DNA from: Escherichia coli | GTDB lineage: Bacteria > Pseudomonadota > Gammaproteobacteria > Enterobacterales > Enterobacteriaceae | DNA: 64,000 bases | Direction: 5' to 3' (one strand) | Assembly (NCBI RefSeq): GCF_011045215.1 | Contig: NZ_CP049201.1 | Shown: positions 41,572 through 53,898 of the stretch, piece after piece | Layout of the letters: the number at the start of each line of letters is the position of its first letter | Numbering within the stretch: the first letter of the stretch is position 1 | The notes under the pieces: generated by a model | What the model saw: the letters and a program-made list of their open reading frames with translations, nothing else | The model's database searches: none | What the model was told of the DNA's origin: nothing | Translations under genes and position numbers: made by a program

Positions 41572-42195
41572 TCACATTTCCTGGTTAGGTTTACGGGTGG
41601 TTCCCCCGCTGTCGCCAGGGTGATCATGAGTATTATAAATTTCGCGAATTTTACTCATGCTGCCGGTTTTATCGGTGATCTCCTGTGAGGCACCGATATT
41701 GCCCAGAACCTGCGTATCGGCATTAATCTTCGTTTCTCCCTGCACAGTCAGGGTATCCGTGATTTCCACCGGACCGTCCAGCGTTCCCCTGCCGGTGATT
41801 TTATAGCTGCCGCTTTCAGCCAGCGTGATGGACAGGGCATTGGCTTTACGGTCGTAACGGATTTCCGTTCCGGTATCAAACAAAATAACATGCTCGTGTT
41901 CACTGCCCGCCGGTACAGGAATGGCGTCAATATTCGCCCCCGGATACACACGACCGTTACGCAGATCGCCCGCCTCCGATATCACCGTGACCGCATCTCC
42001 TGGTGCCGGGTAATTACTGACCTGCATGTAACGCCCGGACTGCATCTGAATCCAGGGCAACGGCGGCGAAAGCACATCTCCGATATCCACCCGAACCATC
42101 ACCGGGTTACCCGGGATCACCTCTTCCACCACGCCGCGACGGATCATGTCCGCCACCCTGCGGCGTAACTCTGCCACTTCATCCGCCAGACTCAT
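41572..42195 (-). CDS. Baseplate spike protein V (P2 gpV-like)
   Basis: ORF track 41572..42354; start taken at MSLADEVAELRRRV (ATG 42195); C-terminus HDHPGDSGGTT as in P2 V. Confidence 0.8.
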   Translation of the reverse strand: MSLADEVAELRRRVADMIRRGVVEEVIPGNPVMVRVDIGDVLSPPLPWIQMQSGRYMQVSNYPAPGDAVTVISEAGDLRNGRVYPGANIDAIPVPAGSEHEHVILFDTGTEIRYDRKANALSITLAESGSYKITGRGTLDGPVEITDTLTVQGETKINADTQVLGNIGASQEITDKTGSMSKIREIYNTHDHPGDSGGTTRKPNQEM

Positions 42196-42339
42196 CGCCG
42201 GTGCCCTCCGCTTTCCAGATAAGACGATAATCCTGCACATGCTTTTTACCGGTTTCCGGTACTTTACCCAGCCAGACTTCCTGTAACGGCACACCTGCCG
42301 GAGCCGCAAACGGATCTTCGCCGACCGGAATGTCCTGTT
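42179..42339 (-). pseudogene. 3' fragment of a tail-completion gene (P2 gpS-like position), separated from its 5' part by the inserted element
   Basis: Open frame ...FSFEQDIPVGEDPFAAPAGVPLQEVWLGKVPETGKKHVQDYRLIWKAEGTGDESGG-stop with no upstream start (in-frame stop at 42398-42400); ATGA overlap with gene V. Confidence 0.55.
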
Positions 42340-42348
42340 CAAAAGAGA
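42340..42348. repeat. Left copy of 9-bp direct repeat CAAAAGAGA (putative att core)
   Basis: Identical 9-mer at 53493-53501; both copies sit in the same reading frame of the split gene. Confidence 0.5.
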
Positions 42349-42760
42349 AAGCAAACAAACAAGATAATAAGTTGAATTTAAAGGAATAAAAAAGGCATCA
42401 TTTTTGCTTTTGGTACAAATTCTAGTCCGTATAAACGCGGAAAAATCCGCTAAATTAAGATAAAAAAGATGCTTAGATAGTTACTATGTTTAGCTTCATG
42501 GCTACGGGGAGTAAGTTTGCTCTTTGCTTAATCTCGGTTATGGAAATCCCCATATCGGCATCATGCCCACCAGCGTGACGCATTTTTTTTAATTTCGCGG
42601 GTATAAAAATTTGACGAGGCGGGCGGTCCCATAAGCAATGGGGTGTAGGGATTCCGATCCCCCTGGGGGGGGTATTAAACACCCACCCTATTTAAATACC
42701 GTCTTTTTTGTCACTGTGTGTCACTGGTTGTCACTCTCCGTCACGGTATGCCACCATAAG

Positions 42761-43075
42761 TTAACGTCGTAACCGCTCCGGCTTCTTCCAGTGGTAAGTA
42801 ATTTTTTCTTTCTCCTGGTACATCTGCACGCGGCGACGGTATGACAACATCTCCAGAACTCTGGTGCGTATATTGCGCATATCCACGCCGTTAAGCTCAA
42901 TACCGTCACGGCGCATCACCTCAGCCACCACACGCGCGTAATTTTCGGCTATCACGCTGTCCGGCTGCGTGGCCTCCTGTTTGCCTGCTGGTGGTCTGAT
43001 TCCGGCAGCACGGCGAATCATTTTGAGCATTTCGGCTTCGGTCATTGTCATGGCCTCCGTGGTGATGGAAAACAA
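42761..43075 (-). CDS. Hypothetical protein downstream of element terS
   Basis: 104-aa ORF, no recognised motif; start uncertain (Met at 43075, 43051 or 43045). Confidence 0.4.
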   Translation of the reverse strand: MFSITTEAMTMTEAEMLKMIRRAAGIRPPAGKQEATQPDSVIAENYARVVAEVMRRDGIELNGVDMRNIRTRVLEMLSYRRRVQMYQEKEKITYHWKKPERLRR

Positions 43076-43310
43076 TGCCGTAATTGTGGCGGGTCCTTCC
43101 TGGAAAATGAAACACCGGGGGTGGCCATACGCGCAATTCTTAACTGTTTATGAAAATTTTTCGGGAAAAGTCAGATCCGTTCTTCTTCTCTGTAACTCAT
43201 TGTTTAATGGTAAAATCATCAAAAAAAGAAAGGATCTGGCAGTGGTCATTCTGGGCCCAAAATGACGTTATCAGATCCTTTCTCAGTTTTGTTCAATAAT
43301 TGCGCGGTTG

Positions 43311-43895
43311 TCACTCAGCTCTCTGTTGCCGTAACTTCTCCGGCACGTTTCCGGTTGTTTCCATCAGATAATCTTCCAGAATGCGGGGCAGGTTATCGGC
43401 AGTTTTAGCGCACGCATTACAGGCGCGTGCTGTTTCCCTCCTCAGGCCATCGATCATTGCCGGAGTCATCGCGGGAAACTGCCTTTGCATCGTAAGGGGC
43501 AAGCTATTCATGATGGTTGAAATCTGTTGCGCCAGTTTAGACAGTGCATACATACAAAAGCCGGTATCTATAACCTCTCCTGTCTCCCTGGCGTTCTTCA
43601 GTTCCTGCCCGTCAGCCTGTGCTTTAGTGAGACGGTATCGTTCGTACTCTGTTGTGCCTGGCTGTAAATCTGATTCACCAACGGCACGTAAATCATCAAG
43701 CTCACTGCGGAGTTTTTCTTTTTCGATCTCCTTCTCCCTCTGTACATACCATTCGATCACCTGTGAAGAGTCGAAAGTCACCTCCATACCTTTTCCGCCA
43801 CCAGATACATGGGGGAGCCCTTGCATCTGCCAACGTTCAATTGTGCGCGGATCAACACCGAAAATCTCTGCCAGTCTCTTTTTGTTAACATTCAT
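43311..43895 (-). CDS. Terminase small subunit, lambda Nu1-like (element copy)
   Basis: N-terminus MNVNKKRLAEIFGVDPRTIERWQMQGLPHVSGGGKGMEV resembles recalled lambda Nu1 winged HTH; C-terminal half similar to the prophage TerS at 62051..62560. Confidence 0.8.
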   Translation of the reverse strand: MNVNKKRLAEIFGVDPRTIERWQMQGLPHVSGGGKGMEVTFDSSQVIEWYVQREKEIEKEKLRSELDDLRAVGESDLQPGTTEYERYRLTKAQADGQELKNARETGEVIDTGFCMYALSKLAQQISTIMNSLPLTMQRQFPAMTPAMIDGLRRETARACNACAKTADNLPRILEDYLMETTGNVPEKLRQQRAE

Positions 43896-44039
43896 TTATC
43901 AAATCCTCATCAAAAACCACCTCCGACATGAAACGCCTGAAAAACGGGATTTTCCGGCGTTATGGTGTCGTATGTTTATTATAGTTAATTTAAATAAAAA
44001 CATAATGTTACATGCAAGAAGTACCGACATGCTTTTTCC

Positions 44040-44115
44040 CTGAAAAATTTTCATAAATAGTGAAAATCTGCGCGTCTGCCGCCCCGCGGTGTTTCTGATT
44101 CTGGAAAGGACCCGT
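44040..44115. other. Lambda-like cos site of the element
   Basis: GAAAAATTTTCATAAATAG ... GCGCGTCTGCCGCCCCGCGG ... GGAAAGGACCCG; reverse complement resembles the lambda cos junction (CGCTATTTATGAAAATTTTCC, GGGCGGCGACCT, GGGTCCTTTCC); about 185 bp upstream of terS. Confidence 0.6.
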
Positions 44116-44194
44116 GAAAATTGGGGCGATCACCACCGTTCCGGATACAAAAAAAATCGCGAGACCTTGCCAGCCTCGCGAACGTTCATTTCAG

Positions 44195-44620
44195 TTACTT
44201 AACAGACAGCAACAGCTTTTCATCTTCGGTCAGTCCGGCGTTGCCATCACCGGCTGCTGGCCCAACACATTTCGGGCTGTGCTTTTCCATGTACGCTTCA
44301 AACAGAAAAGCCGTTTTCTTTTCCTGCATCATTGCCTGGGCATCCACGGCAGCCAGTAACGTTTGTGCATAGGTTACTGTCATTACTTCAGAACCACACT
44401 CAATCAGCTTACTGGTGAACTCAGGGTATTTTGATGCCAGCGGTAACGCCTTGATACCCTCTATGCGCTGTTTATCACTCTCAGCCTTTGCAGTAAGCAC
44501 CGTTCGGGCTTCTGTCAGTGATGCGCCATTATTTGCGAGATTTTCCGCAAGCGTCGGGTATTTCTGCGCCTCAGGCAGTGCCATGATCAATGCTCTGGTT
44601 GAATTTGCTTTCTCAGTCAT
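44195..44620 (-). CDS. Hypothetical head-module protein (possible scaffold)
   Basis: 141-aa ORF between decoration-like gene and cos; no recognised motif. Confidence 0.45.
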   Translation of the reverse strand: MTEKANSTRALIMALPEAQKYPTLAENLANNGASLTEARTVLTAKAESDKQRIEGIKALPLASKYPEFTSKLIECGSEVMTVTYAQTLLAAVDAQAMMQEKKTAFLFEAYMEKHSPKCVGPAAGDGNAGLTEDEKLLLSVK

Positions 44621-44634
44621 AAATCACCACAAAA

Positions 44635-44964
44635 TTATTGCCCTAAAGGCTGCACGGAAATACCGGAACCAACAAAAGACGACACTTTTTTCTCGAACGT
44701 GTCCGCTGTATCAGGCCAGTTAATTTCATCGATATTAAAAACCCCGCACTTATAAACCTGTGCGCGGTTTTTTGTGGCCGTGTTAATGTCCGATATGGTC
44801 AGATACACCGCCTTACCGGGTGTACCGTCCCACTCAACCATCAGGCCCGCGCCGTTCTGCATCAGCGGAGTTCTCGCTTTAATTTCTCCGGCACTGGCAA
44901 AACAGGCCAGCGTGCTGACCAGTTCCTGCGTGCCGGAAAGGAATTGCGTGTAAGGTGTTGGCAT
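44635..44964 (-). CDS. Head decoration protein homologue (lambda gpD-like, element copy)
   Basis: RTPLM..VEWDGTPGKAV...YKCGVF..INWPD...FVGSGISV parallels the gpD pattern TPLM..VAWDG...YKSGTF...WP..AF.GTAIS. Confidence 0.65.
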   Translation of the reverse strand: MPTPYTQFLSGTQELVSTLACFASAGEIKARTPLMQNGAGLMVEWDGTPGKAVYLTISDINTATKNRAQVYKCGVFNIDEINWPDTADTFEKKVSSFVGSGISVQPLGQ

Positions 44965-44974
44965 ACGATCCCCT

Positions 44975-46030
44975 TTATTTCACTTCGACGGTAACAAAGC
45001 GACCAATATCCACGGGTACTGGCTGCGGGGCGCTGTGCGTCTGCACGTATTCAATCGCCGGATCGCCCGGTACGATATAATTTTTCGGGTAGTACATCCC
45101 CTCAGAAAATCCCTCGCGTGCCGCGTCCTGATCCATGATGGCACCATAAGCAACAAGGCCTTTATTTTCGGTATTGCCGAAAACCATCATGTTTTGTTTC
45201 AGGAAATATTGCTGCTGCCCGTTTTCGTCGTCATAACGACCGGAATAAACCACGATCGCCACATCACCGAGATACCCCTTGAAGCTGACAACGCCGCCCA
45301 AATCTTTTAGCGCAAGTTCAAGTGACGAGTTTGAACCGCGACGCGTGTCCATTAGTTCGCGGAATCGACGGAACGAGCGCAAAATACGCCAGGCTTCGCC
45401 ACCCATGACGATAATATTTACCGTACCTTCGGAAAAATCAGCGTAAGCCTCAATGTCGCTTATCGGATCAAACGTTTCGGCATCCTGTTTTGACCATTCT
45501 TTCCCGCCAGCCTGCGTAATATGATTGGTTTCGGGTAATCCCCAGTCAATTTCATAACGCTCAATGCCTTCGCCCTCAATAACGTTACGGCCTGTTGTGA
45601 TGGCATTGACCGCCAGCCATTCAACACGCGCTTTGATGGCAGCAAGCTGTTTTTTCTGGCTGTCGTGAACCATTTTTACGCGGCGTAGTGCCGGGGAAGA
45701 CTGACCATTGCCGATCTGTTCTCCAGGCATGCGCATGATTGTTTTGGTGGGATCAATAACGTGTTTGGGCTTCATATAACCCGGCGTGAACGTGTTCGTT
45801 GTGAAACCTTTGTCACGCATAACCTGGCTGCCTGACATTGGAGAACAAAACGGACTCATGACCACGTTTTCAATATCCAGCGTATCAAGTGCAATATCTC
45901 TGGTGCTGAAAGTAGCGACGTTCGGAAAGAACAACGTAGTAAAGAGTGGATTAAATTTAAATTCCGGCACATCTTCGCGCCCGATATTTTTCAGTAGCGT
46001 TGGTGTGCTTACCAGTTGCGGCGCTGTCAT
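44975..46030 (-). CDS. Major capsid protein homologue (lambda gpE-like, element copy)
   Basis: 351-aa ORF; TPGYMKPKH, NHITQAGGKEWSKQDAETFDP, KELMDTRRGSNSSLELALKDLGGVVSFKGY align with the prophage gpE at 55439..56467. Confidence 0.8.
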   Translation of the reverse strand: MTAPQLVSTPTLLKNIGREDVPEFKFNPLFTTLFFPNVATFSTRDIALDTLDIENVVMSPFCSPMSGSQVMRDKGFTTNTFTPGYMKPKHVIDPTKTIMRMPGEQIGNGQSSPALRRVKMVHDSQKKQLAAIKARVEWLAVNAITTGRNVIEGEGIERYEIDWGLPETNHITQAGGKEWSKQDAETFDPISDIEAYADFSEGTVNIIVMGGEAWRILRSFRRFRELMDTRRGSNSSLELALKDLGGVVSFKGYLGDVAIVVYSGRYDDENGQQQYFLKQNMMVFGNTENKGLVAYGAIMDQDAAREGFSEGMYYPKNYIVPGDPAIEYVQTHSAPQPVPVDIGRFVTVEVK

Positions 46031-46266
46031 TACTCACCCCCATGAGGCTGATTCATACCAAGCGCAGCGCGTAAATGGCTGCGTACCATCCAGCCGACTG
46101 ACGGCTTCACCAGGCACAACGGATCAAGGCCGATTTTTTTTCCTGCCTCTGCGTTCTCCTCAAAGCGCGCATTAAGTGCGGCGATAATATCGGGGCTGAT
46201 GTACACGGATACACCGCCCGGCTTCTGTGTTCCCATAAATGAGATTCCTCTTTGACTAAAAAACAA
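46030..46266 (-). CDS. Hypothetical protein upstream of capsid homologue
   Basis: 78-aa ORF, start uncertain; no recognised motif. Confidence 0.35.
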   Translation of the reverse strand: MFFSQRGISFMGTQKPGGVSVYISPDIIAALNARFEENAEAGKKIGLDPLCLVKPSVGWMVRSHLRAALGMNQPHGGE

Positions 46267-46457
46267 ACATAACGAAAAGTCATGTCATGATTTTAATTAT
46301 CGTTGCACTTTTTGCAATATAATTGACTATTGTTGCGAATAATGAAATCATTATGTCGTGGTTTTAATCCTTGTACCACAGAGTTGTTTAGCATTAATCA
46401 CGTTAGCGGCGTGAAATCCCCCGGAACCTCATCCCGGGGGATTTTTTTGCGCACAAA

Positions 46458-46482
46458 AAAGCCGGGAAAAATCCCGGCTTCT
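46458..46482 (-). terminator. Terminator after element ssb
   Basis: AGCCGGGA..TCCCGGCT hairpin followed by TTTTTTGTG on the minus strand, just after ssb stop. Confidence 0.5.
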
Positions 46483-46494
46483 GTCACTCGTTGC

Positions 46495-46917
46495 TTAAAA
46501 CGGTATTTCATCCCCGTACGGATCATCATTTCCCGCCTGTTGTTTTGCTCTGCTCAGTGCATCAGTAGCCTGCCCCTGTTGGCCTTTTTTGCCGCCCGGT
46601 CGCGCCGTTCTGGCACTGATTACACTGTCTGCGATAACCTGCCAGCTCTGCCGCGTTTCGCCGTTCTGGCCTGTCCACTGGCTTACCTGCATGTTACCCG
46701 CCACGCTCACCAGTTCGCCTTTGCGGTGTTTTGCCAGTGCGTCGGCCTGTCTGCCAAACGCCAGGACGGATAACCACATCGTCGCCGTTCCGTCATCTGC
46801 CTGGCTGCACGGCAGGGGAACCGCCATACTCGCCATCGCCATTTGTGTTCCCTTGCTGGTGGTCTTTAACTGCGGGTCAGCCACCAGCCGCCCGTAAGCT
46901 GCTATCTGTGCTGTCAT
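46495..46917 (-). CDS. Single-stranded DNA-binding protein (SSB-like) with acidic C-terminal tip
   Basis: 140-aa ORF; C-terminus ...NDDPYGDEIPF resembles the SSB tail ...DFDDDIPF. Confidence 0.7.
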   Translation of the reverse strand: MTAQIAAYGRLVADPQLKTTSKGTQMAMASMAVPLPCSQADDGTATMWLSVLAFGRQADALAKHRKGELVSVAGNMQVSQWTGQNGETRQSWQVIADSVISARTARPGGKKGQQGQATDALSRAKQQAGNDDPYGDEIPF

Positions 46918-47165
46918 GCTGTCTGCTCTCCGGTTTTAACGTTGATGGTTGTCACCTGTTCCGCTTCGGCAATCTCCCGCTCTGTCAGCGTGGCAAAGTT
47001 TGCCGCCGCTGTGGTCATGAATGCGCTTATCAGTTCGGGATGTGCTTTTGCGTATCCTTCTCCGGCATGGCGGTCTATTGTTCTGATTGCCACCTTTAAG
47101 GCGTGCTCTGTCATGTCTAACGCTTTATATTTTGGCGCTGTCTTATCTCTGGTTTTTTTGGTCAT
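46914..47165 (-). CDS. Hypothetical protein
   Basis: 83-aa ORF, ATGA overlap with ssb start. Confidence 0.45.
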   Translation of the reverse strand: MTKKTRDKTAPKYKALDMTEHALKVAIRTIDRHAGEGYAKAHPELISAFMTTAAANFATLTEREIAEAEQVTTINVKTGEQTA

Positions 47166-47370
47166 TTCTCACTATTCCCCACTTTTTCGCCTCACTTTTT
47201 AAGCTCCCAACATGATTTCCAACCTTGTTTTTTTGTGATTCTAATATGTTGTTTTTCAATGTGTTTTTTATTCCTCACTTTTGAGCCTATATACAGGTTG
47301 AAAAGTGAGGGGCGCGGTTGCTTTTTGTTCAGTTTCTGCTATCCCCTCACTTTTGTGCCTCACTTTTTAC
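47165..47370. repeat. Iteron array with AT-rich core (candidate replication origin of the element)
   Basis: CTCACTTTT at 47191, 47274, 47346, 47361 and inverted AAAAGTGAGG at 47301, flanking an AT-rich stretch (47225-47275), directly downstream of the helicase gene. Confidence 0.55.
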
Positions 47371-48782
47371 AGTGGGCGCACATCATCACCGTCAATAGTG
47401 ATAACGCCGTCTCTTTCCAGCTTGTACAGCCAGCGCCGAAAGTTTTTCATCTCATACCCCAGCTTTTTCATATCATCACGCAATAACGGGATAGTGCATT
47501 TATCGCCGCGCTGTGTGCGTGAACGGATACAGCCCCATAGCGCGGCGTGATTCTCCGTCTTGTTTCCGGCCTCCTCAATGCGCTCCAGTTCAACAGGTGG
47601 GCGCGGCTTATCCACTACCACCAGCGACGTGATTAACTCCTTGTCAGCGTCGATAAAAAGCTCCACCACGCGTAAATCGTATGCGGCCTCTTTCAGTTCC
47701 TCTGCGTCCTTCATTTTGGTGCAGGAGATAACCAGGGCTTCACTGTCTGCACCTTCCCGGCGAATACGGTATTCAGCGTCCAGAGATGCACGAAATGCAC
47801 TGGAACCACGCGCCCCCTTTGTTTCATCCTTGCCGGAATGGTGAACCACCAGTACCGTGGCCCCTGTGCGTCGTTTCAGTTCGTCACATCCACGGATAAA
47901 CGCCCCCATATCCCGCGCGTCATTTTCATCATTACCGCCAAAACACCGCGCCAGCGTATCCAGAATAATCATGCGTACCGGTTTACCCGTTTCCCTTTCA
48001 ACCTGGCGGGAAGCGATGACCATTTCATCAATATCAAACTGTGCTGCCGGAAAAATCGGGCGGTTTACCAGGTACAGATTTTTCACCCGTTCATCATTAA
48101 CGATTTCCCATGCTTTGATACGACGAGGGACACCAATGCCACCTTCACCGACGACATACATCACCGAACCATGCGCCACCCTGCGGCCTCCCCAGTGGCG
48201 ACCCGTGGCAACATGACACGCCCAGGAACACGCGAGGAATGATTTATAGGAACCGCTCGCGCCGTATGTGCTGCACAACGAATTAGCCGGAATCACGCCC
48301 TTAACGACATAATCAAGCTGTGTGTCGTACCCTGCAGATCCAATACTCATTGGTAGCGTGGTTTTTCGCTGGTCGTTTTTTTCTTCCTCCGGTATCTCTC
48401 CGGACCGTCTTTTCTGGCGCTCTCGTTCCAGATATTCGCGCCACCCCTCCCGCTTCTGGCTGTGCATTCCCTCAGGGTAATAATTCGCATCCCGTACACC
48501 TGCCGCTGCCAGCTTTTGCCCGATGGCATTAATATTTGACGGCTTGATGTGGCCTGCCTTGTACAGCCGGACACAATAGCGACCATCGTCGATAATTTTC
48601 AGGTCAGCCAGTTCGTCAAGATGGCTGTCTCCAAGCCATACAGGCGGAACATTGTCGCCAGCAAGTCGCCCGTCCTGCTCCTGCCATTGTTTCGCGTGCG
48701 CCCAGGCATCACTACCCGCAAAAATAATGACTTCGGTCATTTTGTCGTGCGGCTGTTTTTTTAAGTTCGGTGCCAGTTTCAT
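47367..48782 (-). CDS. Replication protein, RepA/DnaB-like P-loop helicase
   Basis: 471-aa ORF with Walker A GASGSYKS and RecA-like core; C-terminal winged-helix-like region. Confidence 0.7.
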   Translation of the reverse strand: MKLAPNLKKQPHDKMTEVIIFAGSDAWAHAKQWQEQDGRLAGDNVPPVWLGDSHLDELADLKIIDDGRYCVRLYKAGHIKPSNINAIGQKLAAAGVRDANYYPEGMHSQKREGWREYLERERQKRRSGEIPEEEKNDQRKTTLPMSIGSAGYDTQLDYVVKGVIPANSLCSTYGASGSYKSFLACSWACHVATGRHWGGRRVAHGSVMYVVGEGGIGVPRRIKAWEIVNDERVKNLYLVNRPIFPAAQFDIDEMVIASRQVERETGKPVRMIILDTLARCFGGNDENDARDMGAFIRGCDELKRRTGATVLVVHHSGKDETKGARGSSAFRASLDAEYRIRREGADSEALVISCTKMKDAEELKEAAYDLRVVELFIDADKELITSLVVVDKPRPPVELERIEEAGNKTENHAALWGCIRSRTQRGDKCTIPLLRDDMKKLGYEMKNFRRWLYKLERDGVITIDGDDVRPL

Positions 48783-49078
48783 TTTTTACCCCTGAATGCG
48801 TTAATCATGTTTTTCATTTTCTGAATGTTCGCCCGTGCCTTTGCGTTGCTGGTGGGCTGTTTGCATGGCGTGGCCTGTATCAGTGAAAAATCACGCCGGA
48901 ACTGATAAACAGGCATCACGCAGTCATAGCCGTACCCATCACGGCGGTAAGTAACGCACCGTCCCGCCACGCTTTTAATCGTTACCGTGCCGCCGTAGTT
49001 ATCCCGGAAAATATCGCCGGGGCGGATTTCAGGCCGAGCGGGGCCGCTGGCAGTAAAGCCAGAAATTTTCTGTTTCAT
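48779..49078 (-). CDS. Hypothetical protein
   Basis: 99-aa ORF, ATGA overlap with helicase start. Confidence 0.4.
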   Translation of the reverse strand: MKQKISGFTASGPARPEIRPGDIFRDNYGGTVTIKSVAGRCVTYRRDGYGYDCVMPVYQFRRDFSLIQATPCKQPTSNAKARANIQKMKNMINAFRGKK

Positions 49079-49286
49079 GGTTTTTATTCCTCTGCGCGGG
49101 TCTTGTTGTGTATTTCCATAACCGCGTTTAATTCATCAATAACCGGGGTTAACAGAGTGCTGAAAGCAGAAAATAAATCCCCCCCCCTGTTCGGCATGAA
49201 CTTCGGTTAATTTAATTAATACCGCTTTCATTTCCAGTGCCCGGTTTAATGCATTCTCAGAATGAATAAGAACATCGAAAGGGATT

Positions 49287-49520
49287 TTATCCATGGCTTA
49301 CATCCTCCGGGAATTTTCTTCTGTAACGCGCCTCTGCAACATATTCCGCATAGTCCGACGCAATATTGAGAATCTCCACACCCTCTGACCTGTAGCCACT
49401 GGTACTGATAAGAAAAAATGCGGCTTTCATCATGTCGGCAACGCATAACAACGCATCGCCTGTATGTTCCGGTGCGCCATCAAATTCCTGTTTCAGGGCA
49501 TTAAAACGATCATCACGCAT
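49287..49520 (-). CDS. Hypothetical protein (may be the 3' part of one gene frameshifted at a C9 tract)
   Basis: 77-aa ORF; begins inside poly-C/G tract 49523-49531. Confidence 0.3.
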   Translation of the reverse strand: MRDDRFNALKQEFDGAPEHTGDALLCVADMMKAAFFLISTSGYRSEGVEILNIASDYAEYVAEARYRRKFPEDVSHG

Positions 49521-49753
49521 AACCCCCCCCCATTTTCACAATCAGTAATCAGGATGGCTTTAGCCTCATTCAGTGCCATATCAGCACTAAATTGCATAAC
49601 AGCCAGTGAGTGAGGAACGAAATCCCCGGCATATTCTGTTTCGCTGGTGGCGTGCTTATGTGCCCTGTCCGCGATAACAGAAATATCAATCAGCGCGTGC
49701 ATCAGCGTTTTGATGGCTTCGGCGGCTGCGTCCTGACGGGTGTTATTGCACAT
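49493..49753 (-). CDS. Hypothetical protein (may be the 5' part of one gene frameshifted at a C9 tract)
   Basis: 86-aa ORF ending just after poly-C/G tract. Confidence 0.3.
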   Translation of the reverse strand: MCNNTRQDAAAEAIKTLMHALIDISVIADRAHKHATSETEYAGDFVPHSLAVMQFSADMALNEAKAILITDCENGGGLCVMIVLMP

Positions 49754-49949
49754 GGCGCACCTCCTGACGAATACGGGCGGCGAATACCATCACGCAGCCA
49801 TCAGGAGATTGCTGACGCGCTTCCTGTTCGTTGGTGGCCTCAATGGTAATCACGCGCGGTTGTGCCGTGCTCAGGGCGATAAAACGCCAGATGTATTTAT
49901 TCAGGTTGTGCGAGTCCCGCCCTTGCGGGTGTGTGGTATGATTTAACAT
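49743..49949 (-). CDS. Hypothetical small protein, divergent from the RHH gene
   Basis: Start taken at MLNHTTHPQ (ATG 49949, RBS GAGGTA); long upstream extension in ORF track rejected. Confidence 0.4.
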   Translation of the reverse strand: MLNHTTHPQGRDSHNLNKYIWRFIALSTAQPRVITIEATNEQEARQQSPDGCVMVFAARIRQEVRHVQ

Positions 49950-50043
49950 AGCTACCTCGATAATCTTGCTATCGTTGGTGGTTAGACGCCCTGCATGTGT
50001 ACCACCACTGCGGGGCGTTGCGTTTTTTGATGTGCACGTGTTA

Positions 50044-50088
50044 AGGTGTACACCTAACGAACCAAAACATAACGCCATAGGTGTACAC
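50044..50088. promoter_or_regulatory. Two palindromic operator-like sites GTGTACAC in a divergent promoter region
   Basis: AGGTGTACAC at 50044-50053 and 50079-50088, second abutting the RHH start codon. Confidence 0.5.
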
Positions 50089-50283
50089 ATGTCAACAGTT
50101 ATTAAGCGCGATAAAAAACAAAAAGGCACAGGAAAGGCCCCACCATTCCATATGCGTATAGTCCCTGAATTGAAGGAGCAGTTTGATAACGAAGCCAGTA
50201 ACGATGGAGTAAGTCTTGCCAACTGGCTTAAAGAGTTAGGGCGCAAAGAACTGCTACGGCGCGGAATTGAACCAAAGGGATAA
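50089..50283 (+). CDS. Ribbon-helix-helix (Arc/CopG-like) DNA-binding protein
   Basis: ORF track 49966..50283; start taken at MSTVIKRDKKQKG (ATG 50089); APPFHMRIVPELKEQFDNEASNDGVSLANWLKELGRK fits the Arc-type RHH pattern. Confidence 0.6.
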   Translation: MSTVIKRDKKQKGTGKAPPFHMRIVPELKEQFDNEASNDGVSLANWLKELGRKELLRRGIEPKG

Positions 50284-50340
50284 CTATCACTAATGTCGCA
50301 ACCAGAGGAGTTGCGACTCCGAAGATTACATAGGAAATTA

Positions 50341-50823
50341 ATGATTATGGGATTCGTCATTTTCATTGCGATCGTAATTTTATCCATTTACGTTCTTACC
50401 AAATTATTTATTTCAGAAAATTCACACGACAAAATTAGAGCCGAGGCATCCAGAAGAATTGCACAAGAAGAGGCCGAACGGGCTAAGTTGTATGAAGAGA
50501 GAAAGGAATCATCTGATAATCCTGTTAATAAACAAAAACGAATAACAACACACGAAGATCATTTTTATATGGATATTCATGGTGGTCACAAATATATATG
50601 TGTTGATGCTAAGTTAGTTTTTGAATATGCAAATTTAAAACACAACTATTTTCTTCACGCCTCTCACTATTTCCCTGAGTTAGAGTATGTTTATGGAAAA
50701 AACGAACATGGGAAAATAGTTAGAGTAGATTTGTACGATAAAAAAATTCAAGCTATTAACCCCGATACTGGCGAAAAAATACCTGGTGTGAGACGTTATC
50801 TACGACAGCACAAGATAAAATAG
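50341..50823 (+). CDS. AT-rich membrane-anchored protein of unknown function
   Basis: ORF track 50293..50823; start taken at MIMGFVIFIAIVILSIYVL (ATG 50341, RBS AGGAAA); single N-terminal TM helix; markedly lower GC than neighbours. Confidence 0.5.
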   Translation: MIMGFVIFIAIVILSIYVLTKLFISENSHDKIRAEASRRIAQEEAERAKLYEERKESSDNPVNKQKRITTHEDHFYMDIHGGHKYICVDAKLVFEYANLKHNYFLHASHYFPELEYVYGKNEHGKIVRVDLYDKKIQAINPDTGEKIPGVRRYLRQHKIK

Positions 50824-51238
50824 CCCACCGGAATTTTTTTCCGGTTACGCTTTGCCCACCAGCCGCAAATGTGGCATTGTTGGCTATGCTCATGCGTTGG
50901 GGATAACGCGCAATTAGTGTTGAAGGGCCACCGTAGCGGGTGGCCTTTGTTTTGCCTGTTATCCGGCAATTGTGGCGCTTCGCCACACGGTTGATATAAT
51001 CCTCCTGCACAGATTCATTTTTTGCGCAGCAGGTTAATTGTTCGCAAGGGCGCTCCGGCAACTGGGCGCTTTTTGTTTTTACCCACCAGCACAATAAAAA
51101 TCTTCATTTTCCATTTTTGCAAAATTTCATGCTTTCCGGACGACTGGCCATATGTCATTTTTTAGCAGAAGATTTTGCCTTGCTGGTGGGTAGCTTCCCG
51201 GTTAACACGATGTACCGTATAATCAGCACCGCACGCGG

Positions 51239-51820
51239 TTACTGAATACGCTCACCAAAGTAAAACTCAGGCTGATATTCACGTATCAGCCTTTTTTCTT
51301 CTTCCTCCAGCTCACGCTTTTTGCGCTTACATGCCTGTAGTTCCCTCCCCTTCTCGCTGGCACTTATCTGGTATTGCTCTTTGCGACGGGAAAAATCCTG
51401 TAATGCGCCCCACGGGATACCATAAGCCCCCGTTTTTCTGATACCCGGTATCACATTTCTGAATACCCAGTTACTGAAACGATGGGCGAACGTGCCAGGA
51501 GTAGCAGCTTTTCGACTTCTGGCAATCAGCTTGTAAAAACCAGATTCAGAAACGACGCTATGATTTGGATTTCCGCGAATACCGTAAGTTAAAGTTACGG
51601 TATTACTTTCATCATCATCCAGAGCTTGCAACGCCATGCGTGAATTAGTCAGTTCCAGCGCAGCGCAGACATCCTTTGCAACAAACCACGGATCGCCGTT
51701 CAGATACACCACGCGAACGTTCACACTATCAAAGCGCAGAACGACCAGATCACGAATATCACAGAATTTTTTCACTGGACGTGCGTCACCCTTGCCAGTC
51801 ACGGCAATATTTTTATTCAT
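51239..51820 (-). CDS. Bro-N domain protein (antirepressor-like)
   Basis: DIRDLVVLRFDSVNVRVVYLNGDPWFVAKDVCAALEL...GFYKLI..S....A..F..WV fits Bro-N. Confidence 0.7.
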   Translation of the reverse strand: MNKNIAVTGKGDARPVKKFCDIRDLVVLRFDSVNVRVVYLNGDPWFVAKDVCAALELTNSRMALQALDDDESNTVTLTYGIRGNPNHSVVSESGFYKLIARSRKAATPGTFAHRFSNWVFRNVIPGIRKTGAYGIPWGALQDFSRRKEQYQISASEKGRELQACKRKKRELEEEEKRLIREYQPEFYFGERIQ

Positions 51821-51870
51821 CGCTTTTTACCTCACATACAAAAAACCCCGCATTGCGCGGGGTATATCAA

Positions 51871-52080
51871 TCATTGACGATATTCATTAGCTTGTTTTCG
51901 TTGTCTTTCCAGCCACGATGCAACATCATCACGATGCCATGCGTTGCGTCGCCCAATCTTAAAGGGGCGTGGAAATTTATTTTTTTCATCATTCATGAAA
52001 GCGTAAAATGCACTCATTGCACCGTAGCGAAGCTCTGCCATCACGTCTTTGGTAAATAGAATATTGCCGTTAGTGCTCAT
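51871..52080 (-). CDS. AlpA-family regulator / excisionase-like protein
   Basis: 69-aa ORF immediately downstream of integrase, HTH-like core. Confidence 0.65.
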   Translation of the reverse strand: MSTNGNILFTKDVMAELRYGAMSAFYAFMNDEKNKFPRPFKIGRRNAWHRDDVASWLERQRKQANEYRQ

Positions 52081-52086
52081 ATTGCC

Positions 52087-53319
52087 TCACATATTCACTA
52101 CTTTTAGCCCCTGATGACCACCAGAACGACGGATAATTCCCTTTCTGGCATCATCAACAAAATCACCAATCCATTGCATCATGATCTTACGTTGCTCAAA
52201 ATATTTTGAGCGATTATAAATATCACGAATAGCATCGCCGCTTTTATGGGCTAATGCTGCCTCAATAACATCTGGGTTAAACCCTTCTTCGTTGAGTAAC
52301 GTACTCCACATAGCCCGGAATCCGTGGGCAGTTGCAATACCATAAAATTGTCCATCTTTGAAACACTTATGACGCAACACGCTTGATATAGCTTTCCCCG
52401 GATTCTTTGGAGAAAAAAATATATAGCTACCACATTTTATTTTATTCATTTCATTTAAAATATCCACGGCTTGCCGTGAAAGCGGAACTACGTGTTCACG
52501 TCCACACTTCATTCTTTCAGGGGGAATTGTCCAGATACAATTTTCTAAATCAATTTCCTCCCATTTTGCCTCCCTTGCTTCACATGGTCGTACCATAGTG
52601 AAAATCTGGAACAAAAGAGAGCATCTTATAGAGATATTACTTGTAGTATCCCACCAGTTCAAAAATTCTGATAACAGTTCAACTGGTAATGCCTTTAATG
52701 GGGTATGTTTTTTTGTTGCAAATGCATTTCTTATTGTTGATAGCGGGTTATTTTTAATTACTCCAGAGTTAACACAGTAATTCATTATTTCATTAATTTT
52801 TGAAATAATTTTATCCAATACAGAATTACGATCAGAAAATTGATTAAGCAATGGTATGACCACAGGCGCGGTCATATCATGTATGTACACATTTCCAAAT
52901 ACAGGGATTATATGTCTGTTCAATAACTCTTCTATTGTCTGTAAAGTCGACAGTCGCAAATCACCTTTTTTCTTAAAATTAAACCATTCAATTGCAATAG
53001 CACCAAACGTCTGTAAGTGCTTTCTTTTAGCCTCGAGTCGTTTTTCTGCCCGGTATGATAACGGATCTATATCCCGTGCCAACAATCTGCGCAGATTATC
53101 GCGTTCTTCTCTGGCTTCAACCAGCGTGAAATCGGGGTATCGCCCTATAGTGTATGTTTGCCGCTTCTTCGTAAAAGGTTGTACATAACGAAAACGCCAC
53201 GATTTACTACCGGCTTTTGACACATAAAGCAAAAGCCCAAACCCATCATATAGAGCGTAATCTTTCTCTCGTGGCCTGGCGCTTTTTACCTCTGATGCAG
53301 TAAGAGGCTTCACCGACAT
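52087..53319 (-). CDS. Tyrosine recombinase, P4-type integrase
   Basis: ORF track 52087..53418; start taken at MSVKPLTASEVKSARPREKDYALYDGFGLLLYVSKAGSKSWRFRY (ATG 53319); C-terminal catalytic region with HGFR and Y. Confidence 0.85.
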   Translation of the reverse strand: MSVKPLTASEVKSARPREKDYALYDGFGLLLYVSKAGSKSWRFRYVQPFTKKRQTYTIGRYPDFTLVEAREERDNLRRLLARDIDPLSYRAEKRLEAKRKHLQTFGAIAIEWFNFKKKGDLRLSTLQTIEELLNRHIIPVFGNVYIHDMTAPVVIPLLNQFSDRNSVLDKIISKINEIMNYCVNSGVIKNNPLSTIRNAFATKKHTPLKALPVELLSEFLNWWDTTSNISIRCSLLFQIFTMVRPCEAREAKWEEIDLENCIWTIPPERMKCGREHVVPLSRQAVDILNEMNKIKCGSYIFFSPKNPGKAISSVLRHKCFKDGQFYGIATAHGFRAMWSTLLNEEGFNPDVIEAALAHKSGDAIRDIYNRSKYFEQRKIMMQWIGDFVDDARKGIIRRSGGHQGLKVVNM

Positions 53320-53492
53320 ACAAGCACTCCAATACAAATTTTTTCTAGTCCATGCGCTGGTTCCTTTTGCCAGAATACTGGCGATAAAAAAGCGAAAAAC
53401 AAGGAACAATGCACACAATGAAAAAACCGCAACTTATTGAATAAGAAGAAAAACAAAAAGAAACGGTAACGAAAGATAATGATTGCATAGTC

Positions 53493-53501
53493 CAAAAGAG
53501 A
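53493..53501. repeat. Right copy of 9-bp direct repeat CAAAAGAGA (putative att core)
   Basis: Identical to 42340-42348; about 170 bp from the integrase start. Confidence 0.5.
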
Positions 53502-53898
53502 CACGGAAAACGATGTAGTCGTCCAGCAGTCGGTCGAAGGTATCCACCTCAGCATCAATAAAAACCGCCGGATCAACGTTATCCAGCCCGAACGTGGCTC
53601 CATCAATCCAGTCAGATAAATCCATTGCCAGACAGCGGGCAAATATCTGCGGTTTTGGCACGTTTTCCGTCTTTCCGGCCCGATCAGTCACCACAAACAG
53701 ATCGCATTTCAGCGTGACCCGTGTCTGCCCGTCGGCAAACTGAGCCTTGTCCCAGCCGGGTACATCCACAAACACGGCAGGCGTCACCAGTTGCGTCACT
53801 TTTTCCGGGTACTCATCGGCATCTTCCACCCAGGGAATTTGTTTCAGACTGTCAATCACTGCCTGATGCCAGGTTCCCATCATCAATGGTTCCATCAT
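53501..53898 (-). pseudogene. 5' fragment of the split tail-completion gene
   Basis: ORF 53434..53898 reads a coherent protein to ...DDYIVFRVSF then a hydrophobic nonsense tail (GLCNHYLSLPFLFVFLLIQ) encoded by element sequence; frame at the junction matches the fragment at 42179..42339. Confidence 0.55.

Follow-up and report, generated by a model that had tools for sequence, protein, structure and literature searches.

The stretch at positions 49,950 to 50,823 of the window (the whole 64,000-nucleotide piece of Escherichia coli DNA analysed, from contig NZ_CP049201.1) is interpreted as a regulatory switch, with a single exchangeable cargo gene attached, belonging to a helper-embedded phage-inducible chromosomal island (PICI). 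Taken whole, and including the predicted operator consensus AGGTR-NN-YACCT for two sites (O1 and O2) of a ribbon-helix-helix (RHH) regulator, this explanation is given a probability of about 0.55. The initial annotation had treated the RHH gene and the 160-aa gene behind it as a two-gene cargo module. All features that it listed were found in place (RHH gene at 50089–50283, 160-aa gene at 50341–50823, AGGTGTACAC twice), and its reading of the RHH, the operators and a mobile AT-rich cargo was upheld, but the pairing of the two genes as one cargo module was not: the RHH gene with its control region was present in 654 of 5426 complete E. coli genomes (~12%), and the 160-aa gene in 14 of these 654, the other 640 being without it. 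The RHH gene was retained whatever cargo followed, even in islands with hardly any cargo, and other islands carried unrelated AT-rich genes (GC 0.31–0.38) in the slot behind the same RHH. Together with its control region, the RHH gene belongs to the conserved core of the satellite and is not cargo.

Identification and limits of the satellite

The region lies in an 11-kb PICI satellite (~11.15 kb) lodged in a prophage late gene of E. coli. The features that define the island and the surroundings of the switch are as follows.

42340..53501, − strand: whole satellite, helper-embedded PICI (gene content, split phrog_1072, core repeat)
49743..49949, − strand: Icd-like gene, first of the leftward replication/packaging operon (NCBIfam NF033153, 1.3e-19; PHROG 6196, 1.2e-44; RefSeq annotation in relatives)
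50850..51100, − strand: non-coding relic (equivalent annotated in relative L001 as a truncated Icd-like gene; terminator scan)
51239..51820, − strand: BRO-N/anti-repressor-family gene (PHROG 2593 'anti-repressor', 1.1e-82; RefSeq 'BRO-N domain-containing protein')
51871–52080, − strand: integration module, AlpA-type HTH/excisionase gene (ORF list, profile matches, RefSeq relatives)
52087 to ~53319 (open frame to 53418), − strand: integration module, tyrosine integrase (ORFs, profiles, RefSeq relatives)

The island genes comprise int, AlpA-type HTH, BRO-N, RHH, cargo, Icd-like, DUF4222, RepA helicase, SSB, capsid-like, decoration and small-terminase genes. The RepA-family helicase was matched by PHROG 2850/906, and iterons were located at 47177–47369. 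Gram-negative PICIs were taken to be elements of ~10–15 kb with an integrase, an AlpA-type regulator and a primase or replicase with an adjacent origin, and with no tail or lysis genes; this gene content was found in the island, where tail and lysis genes are not annotated. The integrase gene is itself AT-rich (GC 0.39).

The insertion interrupts a late gene of the phrog_1072 family, situated between neck and baseplate genes of a myovirus-type tail module. Its N-terminal part was mapped to 53434–53898 and its C-terminal part to 42179–42358, profile positions 3–131 and 130–173 being found at opposite ends of the island. The direct-repeat search, with a minimum of 14 nt, missed the 9-bp att core, and the core was seen after mapping of the split gene: the repeat TCTCTTTTG is present at both ends (42340–42348 and 53493–53501), and joining across it restores the phrog_1072 reading frame. 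The split late gene and the island genes used in this comparison all lie on the − strand, so that late gene and satellite are co-oriented, as in a helper-embedded PICI (HE-PICI). The published HE-PICI integrase clade has a doubled attP motif, tgTGTATTGCantgTGTATTGCa, which was absent from the window with up to three mismatches allowed; the island may thus represent another integrase clade. A cf-PICI in the strict sense was first suspected, as relatives carry ClpP-capsid fusions, and was dropped; the element is called a PICI because its packaging genes are capsid-like, decoration and small-terminase genes only, portal and large-terminase genes being unannotated in the closest relative.

The Icd-like gene starts 139 nt to the left of the RHH start and is divergent from it, in keeping with the divergent control region proposed at the outset. 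On the other side, the BRO-N and cargo genes are convergent, and the alpA-bro unit stops at a bidirectional hairpin; as this unit is both terminated and convergent with the cargo unit, a local promoter is needed. Two more + strand terminator hairpins, the second and third, lie in the relic between them, which is probably the scar of a module exchange.

The RHH regulator and its predicted operators

50089..50283, + strand: Arc-like RHH gene, 64 aa, MSTVIKRDKKQKGTGKAPPFHMRIVPELKEQFDNEASNDGVSLANWLKELGRKELLRRGIEPKG (PHROG 228 and P22 Arc matches)
50044..50055, no strand: predicted operator O1, AGGTGTACACCT, a perfect 12-bp palindrome (sequence, conservation, co-variation)
50079..50090, no strand: predicted operator O2, AGGTGTACACAT (sequence, conservation, co-variation)

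The 64-aa protein was matched by PHROG 228 'Arc-like repressor' (2.4e-5). When all PDB sequences were searched with a profile of 10 RHH variants, P22 Arc (1b28) was matched at E = 0.003, residues 12–59 aligning with Arc 2–49, and hhalign gave a probability of 80% for the same pair. By these sequence matches the protein is an RHH/Arc-type regulator, as had been proposed. The YlcI/YnfO model NF041551 did not match it at the cut-off of 30 bits, a relative with 67% identity reaching 19.8 bits, and PADLOC-DB 2.0 contained no match to it. One RHH relative of 67% identity lies on a phage-lysate fragment (L068) whose host was EDL933; the fragment does not derive from EDL933 itself.

The repeated sequence AGGTGTACAC lies at 50044–50053 and 50079–50088 and contains GTGTACAC (50046–50053 and 50081–50088). 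The exact 9-mer GGTGTACAC occurs twice in the 64 kb, precisely at the two operator sites, and the second copy of the palindrome continues into the RHH start codon (AGGTGTACACATG), which it had correctly been said to abut. O1 overlaps the −10 element of a candidate rightward promoter and approximately +4 to +15 of the predicted leftward transcript. O2 lies inside the spacer of the leftward promoter, adjoining its −35 element, and extends over both the Shine-Dalgarno sequence (AGGTG) and the start codon of the RHH gene.

The RHH gene was found in 51 IMG/VR loci, all of which (51/51) have both sites, and the centres of O1 and O2 change together, lineage by lineage, across these loci. The operator centres co-vary with RHH residues 19 and 21, which align with Arc Q9 and N11; in Arc these two residues read operator bases. 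The predicted beta-strand of the RHH protein is F20–V25. Three specificity classes were distinguished. The combination P-F-H goes with GTGTACAC at both sites in the window and in L048 (only 66% identity); A-F-Q goes with GTG(T/C)GTAC/GTAC(A/G)(C/T)AC in L020 (80%), L022 (78%), L053 (64%) and L068 (67%); and Q-F-R goes with GTGG(T/C)CAC in L025 and L036. As these classes cut across identity, the operator sequence tracks the beta-strand and not overall similarity. The evidence that the beta-strand reads a repeated, palindromic operator, as in RHH regulators, is comparative, and the conservation and co-variation in the 51 loci make the GTGTACAC sites the likely operators of the RHH protein, in agreement with the initial annotation.

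Predicted promoters, terminators and a candidate antisense RNA

50066..50095, − strand: predicted leftward promoter of the Icd-like/replication operon (consensus scan)
50018..50047, + strand: candidate rightward promoter for the RHH gene (conservation; predicted)
49985..50028, + strand: conserved hairpin and T-run (arms 49985–49994 and 50010–50019; T-run 50023–50028)
50295..50317, + strand: spacer hairpin GTCGCAAC-N7-GTTGCGAC (57-nt RHH-cargo spacer)
50827..50958, + strand: 3' end of the rightward unit (hairpin 50827–50845; strong terminator 50923–50948, then a T-rich tail)

The predicted leftward promoter has a −35 element TTGACA (50095–50090), an 18-nt spacer and a −10 element TATGTT (50071–50066), with 10 of 12 consensus matches. 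Among 11 divergent sequences, the −35 element and −10 positions 1, 2 and 6 were invariant and −10 positions 3–5 varied; the hexamer TTGACA also encodes RHH codons 1–3, so that its conservation may be partly coding-driven. The rightward candidate, with a −35 element TTGCGT (50018–50023), a TG (50039–50040) and a −10 element TAAGGT (50042–50047), is weak (3/6 in the −10 plus TG) and was missed by the consensus scan. Its TG-n-TA and last T were invariant in the same number of divergent sequences, and because these bases overlap or adjoin the operator, promoter and operator constraint are inseparable there.

Between the Icd-like start and the RHH operators, the hairpin at 49985..50028 was stabler on the + strand in all 16 distinct variants (mean −23.7 versus −17.8 kcal/mol), with nearly all G.U pairs on that strand. 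RNAalifold gave 13 pairs, five of them with compensatory changes, and an 81-nt + strand RNA folded with z = −5.4, against z = −2.6 for the − strand. On this sequence evidence the hairpin behaves as a + strand intrinsic terminator and is probably the 3' end of an antisense RNA of ~80 nt (~49950–50028), which would probably span the Icd-like ribosome-binding site and start. The candidate promoter of this RNA, TGgTATGAT (49934–49942), is conserved, but it lies within coding sequence. No Rfam family matched the hairpin. Over the island, Rfam gave no credible family, three weak matches being terminator-like look-alikes, and C4 and isrK were not found between 42000 and 54000 at E up to 1. In EcCIMP1, a PICI studied by experiment and without a divergent RHH, C4 (81 bits) and isrK (69 bits) were detected immediately ahead of the Icd-like gene. 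The spacer hairpin further right (−14.6 kcal/mol, z = −2.45), identical across four E. coli copies, lacks a following U-run and so does not qualify as an intrinsic terminator.

These elements bear on an alternative in which the RHH protein is a local autoregulator of the rightward unit only, the leftward operon being controlled by AlpA and/or the antisense RNA. Autoregulation is common among RHH proteins, the RHH ribosome-binding site and start lie under O2 and the candidate rightward −10 under O1, AlpA is the sole demonstrated regulator of Gram-negative PICIs, published accounts of whose induction rest on this activator alone, and the conserved + strand hairpin and terminator suggest a separate antisense RNA on the Icd-like leader. 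Against this, the 139-nt intergenic region offers a single good leftward candidate, and O2 falls between its −35 and −10 elements, so that RHH occupancy should exclude RNA polymerase; the module occupies the position held elsewhere by the C4/IsrK immunity RNAs ahead of icd-like genes; and the RHH gene is kept in the 654 genomes regardless of cargo. Purely local control is therefore considered unlikely, and the RHH protein is read as the repressor of this island type because EcCIMP1, which lacks the module, has the C4/IsrK RNAs in its place. This repressor role is inferred.

The cargo gene and its protein

50341..50823, + strand: cargo gene, 160 aa (ORF; Shine-Dalgarno AGGA at 50332–50335)
Residues 2–23 (50344–50409), + strand: N-terminal membrane helix (hydropathy/model)
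Residues 27–58, + strand: long charged helix (model of the cargo protein)
About residues 84–160 (50590–50820), + strand: C-terminal SH3/WYL-like beta-barrel (AF2 model)

An alternative in-frame ATG at 50293 would give a protein of 176 aa. The four E. coli copies, in which the spacer is invariant, do not settle the start codon; 50341 is preferred because eight homologues all begin 1–3 residues ahead of the membrane helix, some with a good Shine-Dalgarno sequence. The gene has a GC content of 0.337 (0.29 at third codon positions), against ~0.49 for the rest of the island and 0.53 for the flanking prophage, and only 0.24% of 483-nt windows across the 64 kb are as AT-rich. Residues 1–19 of the protein have a mean Kyte-Doolittle value of 2.94, and no second hydrophobic segment was found. 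The description of the cargo as AT-rich, horizontally mobile, equipped with a single N-terminal membrane helix and free of recognisable motifs thus stood.

The remote-homology and structure check proposed with that description yielded an SH3/WYL-like barrel and no match to a named family. Mean AF2 pLDDT was 85.8 for the full length and 93.0 for the domain, and the barrel ends in a conserved tail, HP.TGERIPGI(K/R)RYLRQ. Searches of PHROGs, NCBIfam, PADLOC and Pfam with the single sequence and with all family members gave nothing significant, Pfam WYL (PF13280) being unmatched by the protein and by 10 family members; the family profile against PDB sequences gave E > 1 only, and the best Foldseek match of the model among BFVD viral structures had E = 0.28. 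No catalytic motif was recognised, no known defence, exclusion or lysis family was matched, and no sequence or fold relation to the superinfection-exclusion proteins SieA, Imm, gp15 and Sie2009 was seen in PHROGs or BFVD. The structural scores of the barrel are low and common to many unrelated SH3-like barrels; such a fold says little about function.

The family is small: 15 clusters among 5.8 billion proteins in a profile search and nine representatives among 1.84 billion in an exhaustive phmmer search, the relatives being few and close, none named and none with a Pfam domain. Eight of the nine informative contexts place the gene in the PICI slot seen here, opposite in strand to int/alpA and following a small regulator of RHH type; in the ninth it is a moron in reverse orientation within a prophage. 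The RHH-cargo pair was found on two different backbones, one located at tRNA-Pro and carrying a primase, the other embedded in a prophage and carrying RepA. In L005, L065, L066 and L067 the regulator ahead of the cargo homologue belongs to the YlcI/YnfO family (56–67 bits). Homologues elsewhere form a promoter-gene-terminator cassette with a promoter of their own, TTCAGA-17-TATAAT. No partner gene was kept beside the homologues across the contexts examined. Alternative cargoes of the slot gave weak PADLOC matches only, to the candidate systems PDC-S62 and PDC-S31.

The cargo may instead serve the life cycle of satellite or helper, by lysis timing (holin/antiholin-like), by division or envelope control, or by tethering DNA or particles at the membrane. 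The family is found almost exclusively in PICIs, several of which sit within helper late genes, and tblastn of the cargo against 50,697 phage records gave no match; lysis genes are missing from PICIs; and the protein combines one membrane helix with a soluble binding domain and has no enzymatic motif. The gene is dispensable, however, being replaced in its slot by unrelated genes; it sits on the repressor side, oriented opposite to the induced operon; and its promoter in other islands looks constitutive. A lysogeny-phase accessory gene fits dispensability, placement and promoter better, and a life-cycle role is accordingly held to have a low probability.

By analogy with Cap15-like membrane effectors, which have a C-terminal beta-barrel, the cargo might also be a one-gene abortive-infection sensor-effector, in which the WYL-like barrel would sense a phage ligand (single-stranded nucleic acid or a nucleotide), whereupon the juxtamembrane helix and the anchor would oligomerise and damage the membrane. 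The lack of a PF13280 match, the low and unspecific structural scores, the poor suitability of a single membrane helix as a pore former, the absence of a PADLOC match and the lack of a conserved neighbouring partner make this decidedly improbable.

The pair has the typical layout of a type II toxin-antitoxin system, with a small RHH gene first, a second gene ~60 nt downstream and palindromes over the promoter, and would then consist of an RHH antitoxin that autoregulates through the palindromes and a membrane-protein toxin. Weak matches to antitoxin-type RHH proteins were also obtained (Pfam HicB, 0.012; MazE7 in PDB, E = 0.9; RelB, 0.077 for a relative). The distribution largely refutes this reading, with 654 RHH genomes against 14 with the cargo and many unrelated followers; in addition, cargo homologues stand behind regulators of other families or none, and the 64-aa RHH has almost no C-terminal extension for toxin binding. 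Chance origin of the ORFs or palindromes in an AT-rich spacer, suggested by small ORF size and nothing more, is excluded because the comparative data already contradict it: both proteins have constrained homologues, their AF2 models are confident and the sites co-vary.

Proposed mechanism

In the preferred reading, a regulatory switch with exchangeable cargo, the Arc-like RHH protein would bind O1 and O2 and, since O2 lies in the promoter spacer and O1 over both predicted starts, would silence the leftward operon and limit its own synthesis. The predicted leftward promoter would drive the operon of Icd-like, DUF4222, RepA-helicase, SSB and capsid genes, and the RHH protein would play the part that Stl/Rpr has in Gram-positive PICIs and that C4/CI immunity RNAs have in P1, P4 and other Gram-negative PICIs. 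The operators probably belong to an island switch ahead of the replication operon, because the RHH gene is core, the slot is variable and cargo homologues are found behind other regulators. Candidates for derepression are the BRO-N anti-repressor-family protein, which would be driven by AlpA, and helper late transcription through the co-oriented island, which would run antisense to the RHH-cargo unit.

The cargo would be a moron-like gene, here without a promoter of its own; co-transcribed with the repressor, it would be made during quiescence of the satellite. Its protein would be anchored in the inner membrane by the N-terminal helix, with charged helix and barrel predicted to be cytoplasmic by the positive-inside rule; a start at 50293 would add a basic N-terminal extension, reverse the predicted topology and place the barrel in the periplasm. 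As it has no catalytic signature, it is taken to be a binding protein. The anti-phage or exclusion function suggested in the initial annotation was neither borne out nor contradicted; such a role is plausible, and the satellite context fits it circumstantially. That the protein blocks other phages at the inner membrane face, by exclusion or abortive infection, is the likeliest of the roles considered, though speculative and of fairly low probability; the analogy is with rexAB behind lambda cI. The cargo is rare and could be a nearly neutral hitch-hiker.

Implications

Repression of the leftward operon by the RHH protein, if it occurs, would mean that a common class of E. coli satellites is equipped with a protein repressor of recognisable and evolvable operator specificity. 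It would bear on the silence and induction of these islands and on possible cross-regulation between related islands in one cell. The table of operator and beta-strand co-variation is a direct design for specificity swaps. The slot behind the RHH gene holds many uncharacterised AT-rich genes; hotspots of this kind in P2, P4 and other satellites gave new defence systems (PMC9122126), and the 160-aa family offers a compact and clean candidate that consists of one gene.

A broader reading, which in all its parts jointly is offered tentatively, is that a large subfamily of Gram-negative PICIs has in the RHH protein and its two co-evolving operators its missing master repressor or 'immunity' determinant, with several specificity types comparable to phage immunity groups. 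The module would be interchangeable at this position with C4/IsrK RNA and YlcI/YnfO-type cassettes and would be supported by an as yet undescribed cis-antisense RNA directed at the Icd-like leader. The slot would be a hotspot of uncharacterised lysogeny-phase genes, in which the cargo would found a new family of single-gene phage-exclusion proteins.

Comparison with known systems

The immI region of P22 comprises the RHH repressors Arc and Mnt, the overlapping opposed promoters Pant and Pmnt, the sar antisense RNA and ant. The island resembles it in having a small Arc-type RHH, palindromes amid two opposed, overlapping promoters (here predicted), a likely small antisense RNA adjoining them and an anti-repressor-family (BRO-N) gene nearby. 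It differs in gene order and target, the operon here containing Icd-like, satellite replication and capsid genes; the BRO-N gene of the island lies in a separate, convergent unit; and two separate 12-bp sites 35 bp apart take the place of the single 21-bp operator of P22.

The position just upstream of the Icd-like first gene is shared with the C4/CI/IsrK RNAs of P1 immI, P4 and many Gram-negative PICIs. Unlike the islands with C4 or IsrK, the island of the window has neither family; it has a protein repressor with operators (predicted) and a hairpin on the opposite strand. Immunity RNAs of this sort occur in the dynamic 'Bro zone' of Gram-negative PICIs (Tommasini et al. 2023, PMC10111431). 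The island is like the Stl/Rpr systems of SaPIs, whose accessory genes are placed in the interval from int to stl (PMC6092414), in having a repressor gene divergent from the excision, replication and packaging operon and an accessory gene on the int side of it. Stl, in contrast, is a large HTH protein inactivated by specific helper proteins, whereas the island has a 64-aa RHH (repression predicted) and, unlike SaPIs, also AlpA, the activator of Gram-negative PICIs. In cf-PICIs, a variable gene of unassigned function lies downstream of alpA.

The HE-PICI configuration was described by Tommasini, Mageeney and Williams (2023, PMC10111431), with 14 published sites. The present element agrees with it as an 11-kb int-AlpA-Bro-replication-late island, co-oriented in a prophage late gene with a short att core that restores the frame, and differs in the absence of the doubled attP motif TGTATTGC of the integrase clade in that paper, which does not mention an RHH regulator. 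Literature searches on PICIs and ribbon-helix-helix proteins found nothing relevant, and those on YlcI/YnfO/DUF3950 found no functional study. The small prophage proteins of the YlcI/YnfO family (NF041551, DUF3950) are similar to the RHH protein in being RHH-like and in standing at the same position ahead of cargo homologues; unlike them, the RHH of the window does not reach NF041551.

For the cargo, the barrels compared were those of the WYL-domain and SH3-like ligand-binding proteins CapW, BrxR, PafBC and PIF1 and of the Cap15 membrane effectors. With RexAB, SieA/B, Imm, gp15 and Sie2009 the likeness is one of position only, with no relation in sequence or structure. In lambda cI-rexA-rexB, exclusion genes of the lysogeny phase lie behind the repressor gene, and the cargo resembles these genes and other morons as an AT-rich, dispensable gene on the repressor side with predicted expression in the quiescent state.

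Regulatory region and operator co-variation

The initial annotation had placed a small ribbon-helix-helix (RHH) protein and a 160-aa protein with an N-terminal membrane helix in this region, and both open reading frames were found where it had put them, separated by 57 nt.

50089-50283, +, RHH gene, 64-aa ORF
50295-50317, hairpin in the spacer between the two genes, without a U-run 3' of it
50341-50823, +, 160-aa gene, ORF

As had also been reported, the 160-aa gene was far more AT-rich than its surroundings (GC 0.337, third-position GC 0.29, against ~0.49 for the remaining island and 0.53 for the flanking prophage), and only 0.24% of equal-sized windows across the 64 kb reached its AT-richness. 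Both palindromes were recovered as copies of AGGTGTACAC at 50044-50053 and 50079-50088, the first forming a perfect 12-bp palindrome, AGGTGTACACCT, and the second overlapping the RHH start codon. The exact 9-mer GGTGTACAC had no further copy in the window.

The small protein matched PHROG 228 ('Arc-like repressor'), and the best PDB sequence for a ten-variant RHH profile was P22 Arc (E=0.003; hhalign probability 80%), in agreement with its assignment as an RHH regulator. RHH residues 19 and 21 were aligned opposite Q9 and N11 of Arc, which are base-contacting residues. Two sites of the form AGGTR-NN-YACCT (in the window O1, 50044-50055, and O2, 50079-50090) were present in all related loci; their centres co-varied by lineage and tracked RHH beta-strand residues 19-21, not overall similarity.

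Table. RHH residues 19-21 and site centres (percentages, identity to the window RHH).
P-F-H; O1/O2 centre GTGTACAC / GTGTACAC; window, L048 (66%)
A-F-Q; O1/O2 centre GTG(T/C)GTAC / GTAC(A/G)(C/T)AC; L020 (80%), L022 (78%), L053 (64%), L068 (67%)
Q-F-R; centre GTGG(T/C)CAC; L025, L036 (74-77%)

This co-variation is the strongest result of the analysis. It strongly supports O1 and O2 as putative operators of the RHH protein, the role originally proposed for them, and the predicted operators come in several specificity types.

The satellite island

The region sits in an ~11.15-kb island of E. coli, the gene layout of which is that of a Gram-negative phage-inducible chromosomal island (PICI).

52087 to ~53319, -, integrase (int)
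51871-52080, -, AlpA-type HTH gene (alpA)
51239-51820, -, BRO-N/anti-repressor-family gene (bro)
49743-49949, -, Icd-like gene
left of the Icd-like gene, -, small ORFs, DUF4222
47367-48782, -, RepA-family helicase
left part of the island, -, SSB, capsid-like, decoration and small-terminase genes
53434-53898, N-terminal part of phrog_1072 (profile positions 3-131)
42179-42358, C-terminal part of phrog_1072 (profile positions 130-173)

The prophage late gene that the island interrupts is phrog_1072, flanked by a neck/tail-completion gene on one side and baseplate V on the other. Both junctions (42340-42348 and 53493-53501) carry a 9-bp core, TCTCTTTTG, and the phrog_1072 reading frame was restored on joining its two parts, as excision would do.

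Four iterons of the CCTCACTTTT type (47177-47369), directly downstream of the RepA-family helicase gene, are likely to be the replication origin of the island. Two tandem terminator-like hairpins were seen between the SSB and capsid-like genes (46411-46480, -); their sub-threshold Rfam match to ncr1175 (35.6 bits; gathering score 60) is most likely due only to their likeness to terminators. An operator-like sequence, AGGTATCCACCT, lies inside the interrupted helper gene at 53538-53549, ~40 bp from the island junction; it differs from AGGTGNNCACCT by one mismatch, and with 1.3 such matches expected in the window it may be due to chance.

Predicted control of the leftward operon

Consensus scanning returned one good intergenic promoter, directed leftward (TTGACA, 50095-50090; 18 nt; TATGTT, 50071-50066). 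In eleven divergent sequences its -35 hexamer and -10 positions 1, 2 and 6 were invariant and -10 positions 3-5 varied; the conservation of the -35 is confounded because it doubles as RHH codons 1-3. O2 falls within the spacer of this predicted promoter. O1 lies at ~+4 to +15 from the predicted leftward start. It also overlaps a candidate promoter for rightward transcription, weak in its match (TTGCGT, 18 nt, TG-n-TAAGGT; 50018-50047), whose predicted start would face the leftward one at a distance of ~5 bp. The alpA-bro and cargo units converge, and the former stops at a bidirectional hairpin, so the Icd-like operon requires a promoter of its own.

From this arrangement we infer that the RHH protein would repress the Icd-like/replication operon in this island type, and would also regulate its own synthesis. 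Repression might be relieved by the BRO-N protein or, as a second candidate, by late transcription of the helper that continues across the island, which has the same orientation, and runs antisense to the RHH unit.

The stretch upstream of the RHH promoter (49934-50028, +) contains a conserved hairpin and T-run, encoded opposite to the Icd-like operon. For the hairpin itself (49985-50028) the + strand fold was the more stable in 16/16 variants, nearly all G.U pairs were on the + strand and five pairs showed compensatory changes; the 81-nt + strand RNA (49950-50030) had a folding z of -5.4. A candidate extended -10, TGgTATGAT (49934-49942), was conserved, but lies within coding sequence. Rfam gave no family match for the candidate RNA. 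These features suggest an undescribed cis-antisense RNA over the Icd-like ribosome-binding site and start.

RHH gene as core, variable cargo slot

The 951-bp region was matched in 654 of 5426 complete E. coli genomes, and the part with the 160-aa gene was covered in only 14 of these 654; the remainder matched the first ~334 nt only, that is, the control region and the RHH gene. The RHH gene belongs to the conserved core of the island, and the 160-aa gene is cargo. The 'two-gene cargo module' of the initial annotation accordingly holds for the 160-aa gene and fails for the RHH gene (654 against 14 genomes).

RHH relatives were present in 51 IMG/VR loci (64-100% identity), in which ~1.0 to 3.2 kb separated the RHH stop from the integrase. 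Depending on the island, the gene next to RHH encoded a SWIM-like protein of 118 aa, a multi-pass membrane protein of 147 aa, a 241-aa protein or basic proteins of 62-75 aa, or there was no such gene; proteins of 273-318 aa were also seen in this slot. GC was 0.31-0.38 for most of these first genes. Varied AT-rich slot genes were seen 1-3 kb past the RHH stop in L012/L013, L025/L033/L035, L053, L006, L009, L020-L023 and L048-L052. PHROGs lists all alternative slot genes as of unknown function, and PADLOC returned two weak matches only, to candidate systems PDC-S62 and PDC-S31. The pairing of RHH and cargo gene seen in the window recurs on another backbone, an island at tRNA-Pro that encodes a primase in place of RepA.

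In a relative, the counterpart of the non-coding DNA that separates the cargo gene from bro (50850-51100) is annotated as a truncated Icd-like gene. In the window this DNA carries two further + strand terminator hairpins (50923-50948 and 51046-51073) similar to that at 49985-50028, and these relics are probably scars of recombinational module exchange.

The 160-aa protein

The family is rare: a search of 1.84 billion proteins gave 9 representatives, and one of 5.8 billion gave 15 clusters. Its members come from E. coli, Serratia and metagenome assemblies, and none was present in 50,697 phage records. In all members a membrane helix lies 1-3 residues past the start and is followed by K/R-rich sequence, a charged helix and, at the C-terminus, a ~75-aa domain with terminal HP.TGERIPGI(K/R)RYLRQ; in one member this domain is duplicated. 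Invariant residues are structural or basic, and no catalytic pattern was found among the conserved residues. The soluble domain had been described as free of recognisable motifs, and searches of Pfam, PHROG, NCBIfam and PADLOC likewise gave no match. The AF2 model was confident, with pLDDT 85.8 over the whole protein and 93.0 over the domain, and predicted a small SH3-like barrel plus helix. Foldseek against AFDB50 returned first the protein itself and a 41%-identity homologue, then short enterobacterial 'WYL domain-containing' proteins with nearly full-length alignment (E 3e-4 to 4e-3), and also TerB/DjlA-N membrane proteins; against BFVD it gave no match. By the positive-inside rule the barrel is predicted to be cytoplasmic. 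A start at the alternative ATG 50293 would reverse this topology, and the homologues argue against that start.

In eight of nine informative loci (window, L005, L059, L061, L062, L065, L066 and L067) the gene occupied the same PICI slot, on the strand opposite int/alpA, with a small RHH-type regulator upstream in all except L062, whose contig ends just upstream. The ninth, L064, has the homologue as a prophage moron in reverse orientation. Three homologue-bearing islands are embedded in or adjoin phage late genes: in L005 (1-751, 11061-12056) the GpA_ATPase and GpA_nuclease parts of a split large terminase flank the island, in L059 (3590-7291) it adjoins a ClpP protease/portal cluster and in L067 (5320-10550) a tail-tube gene.

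The homologues in L005 and L059 have their own promoter (TTCAGA-17-TAT(G/A)AT), and an AT-rich promoter region with a conserved TATTGATCA motif was seen in L005 (7880-8000), L059 (690-795) and L057 (150-228). The window lacks this element; there the 160-aa gene has no promoter of its own and must depend on the RHH transcript.

The 160-aa protein is a predicted non-enzymatic, membrane-tethered binding protein that would be produced in the quiescent state. Our best guess, a defence hypothesis given about one chance in three, is that it excludes other phages by an early-step block or by abortive infection; the main alternative is a role in satellite or helper biology.

Comparison with known satellites

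A helper-embedded satellite is already in the literature. An Arc-like repressor cassette with co-evolving operators before a PICI replication operon, and a membrane-anchored SH3/WYL-like cargo family, appear undescribed in the searchable literature. Helper-embedded PICIs (HE-PICIs) were described by Tommasini, Mageeney and Williams 2023 (PMC10111431), with a division into four zones (Integration, Bro, Replication, Late). Insertion of the window island in a late gene is the configuration published there, and the RHH and 160-aa gene region falls in their dynamic 'Bro zone'; the paper makes no mention of an RHH regulator. The doubled attP motif TGTATTGC of the published clade is absent here, so the window integrase may belong to another clade.

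In EcCIMP1, an experimentally studied PICI (PMC11773190), all genes have a single orientation without a divergent RHH gene. Directly upstream of its Icd-like gene (L069 16600-16840, E. coli MP1), where the window island has RHH, Rfam identified the RNAs C4 (81 bits) and isrK (69 bits), and neither was found by Rfam in the window island. RNA-based and RHH-based cassettes thus seem to be alternative occupants of this position. Other islands have a third cassette there, a YlcI/YnfO-type RHH accompanied by repeated motifs of its own. Divergent-region repeats in such islands were GTGAGATATAC (four copies) in L061 (115-245) and GTGTGTA/TACACAC in L059 (200-315), differences which fit several 'immunity' types. 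We infer that RHH, C4/isrK and YlcI/YnfO-type cassettes are alternative controls for the same operon.

In cf-PICIs a variable gene of unknown function lies downstream of alpA (He et al., bioRxiv 2025.02.11.637232). Fillol-Salom et al. 2018 (PMC6092414) called the global repressor in Gram-negative PICIs 'unclear', and described accessory genes between int and the repressor gene in SaPIs; the window island likewise has an accessory gene between int and the RHH gene.
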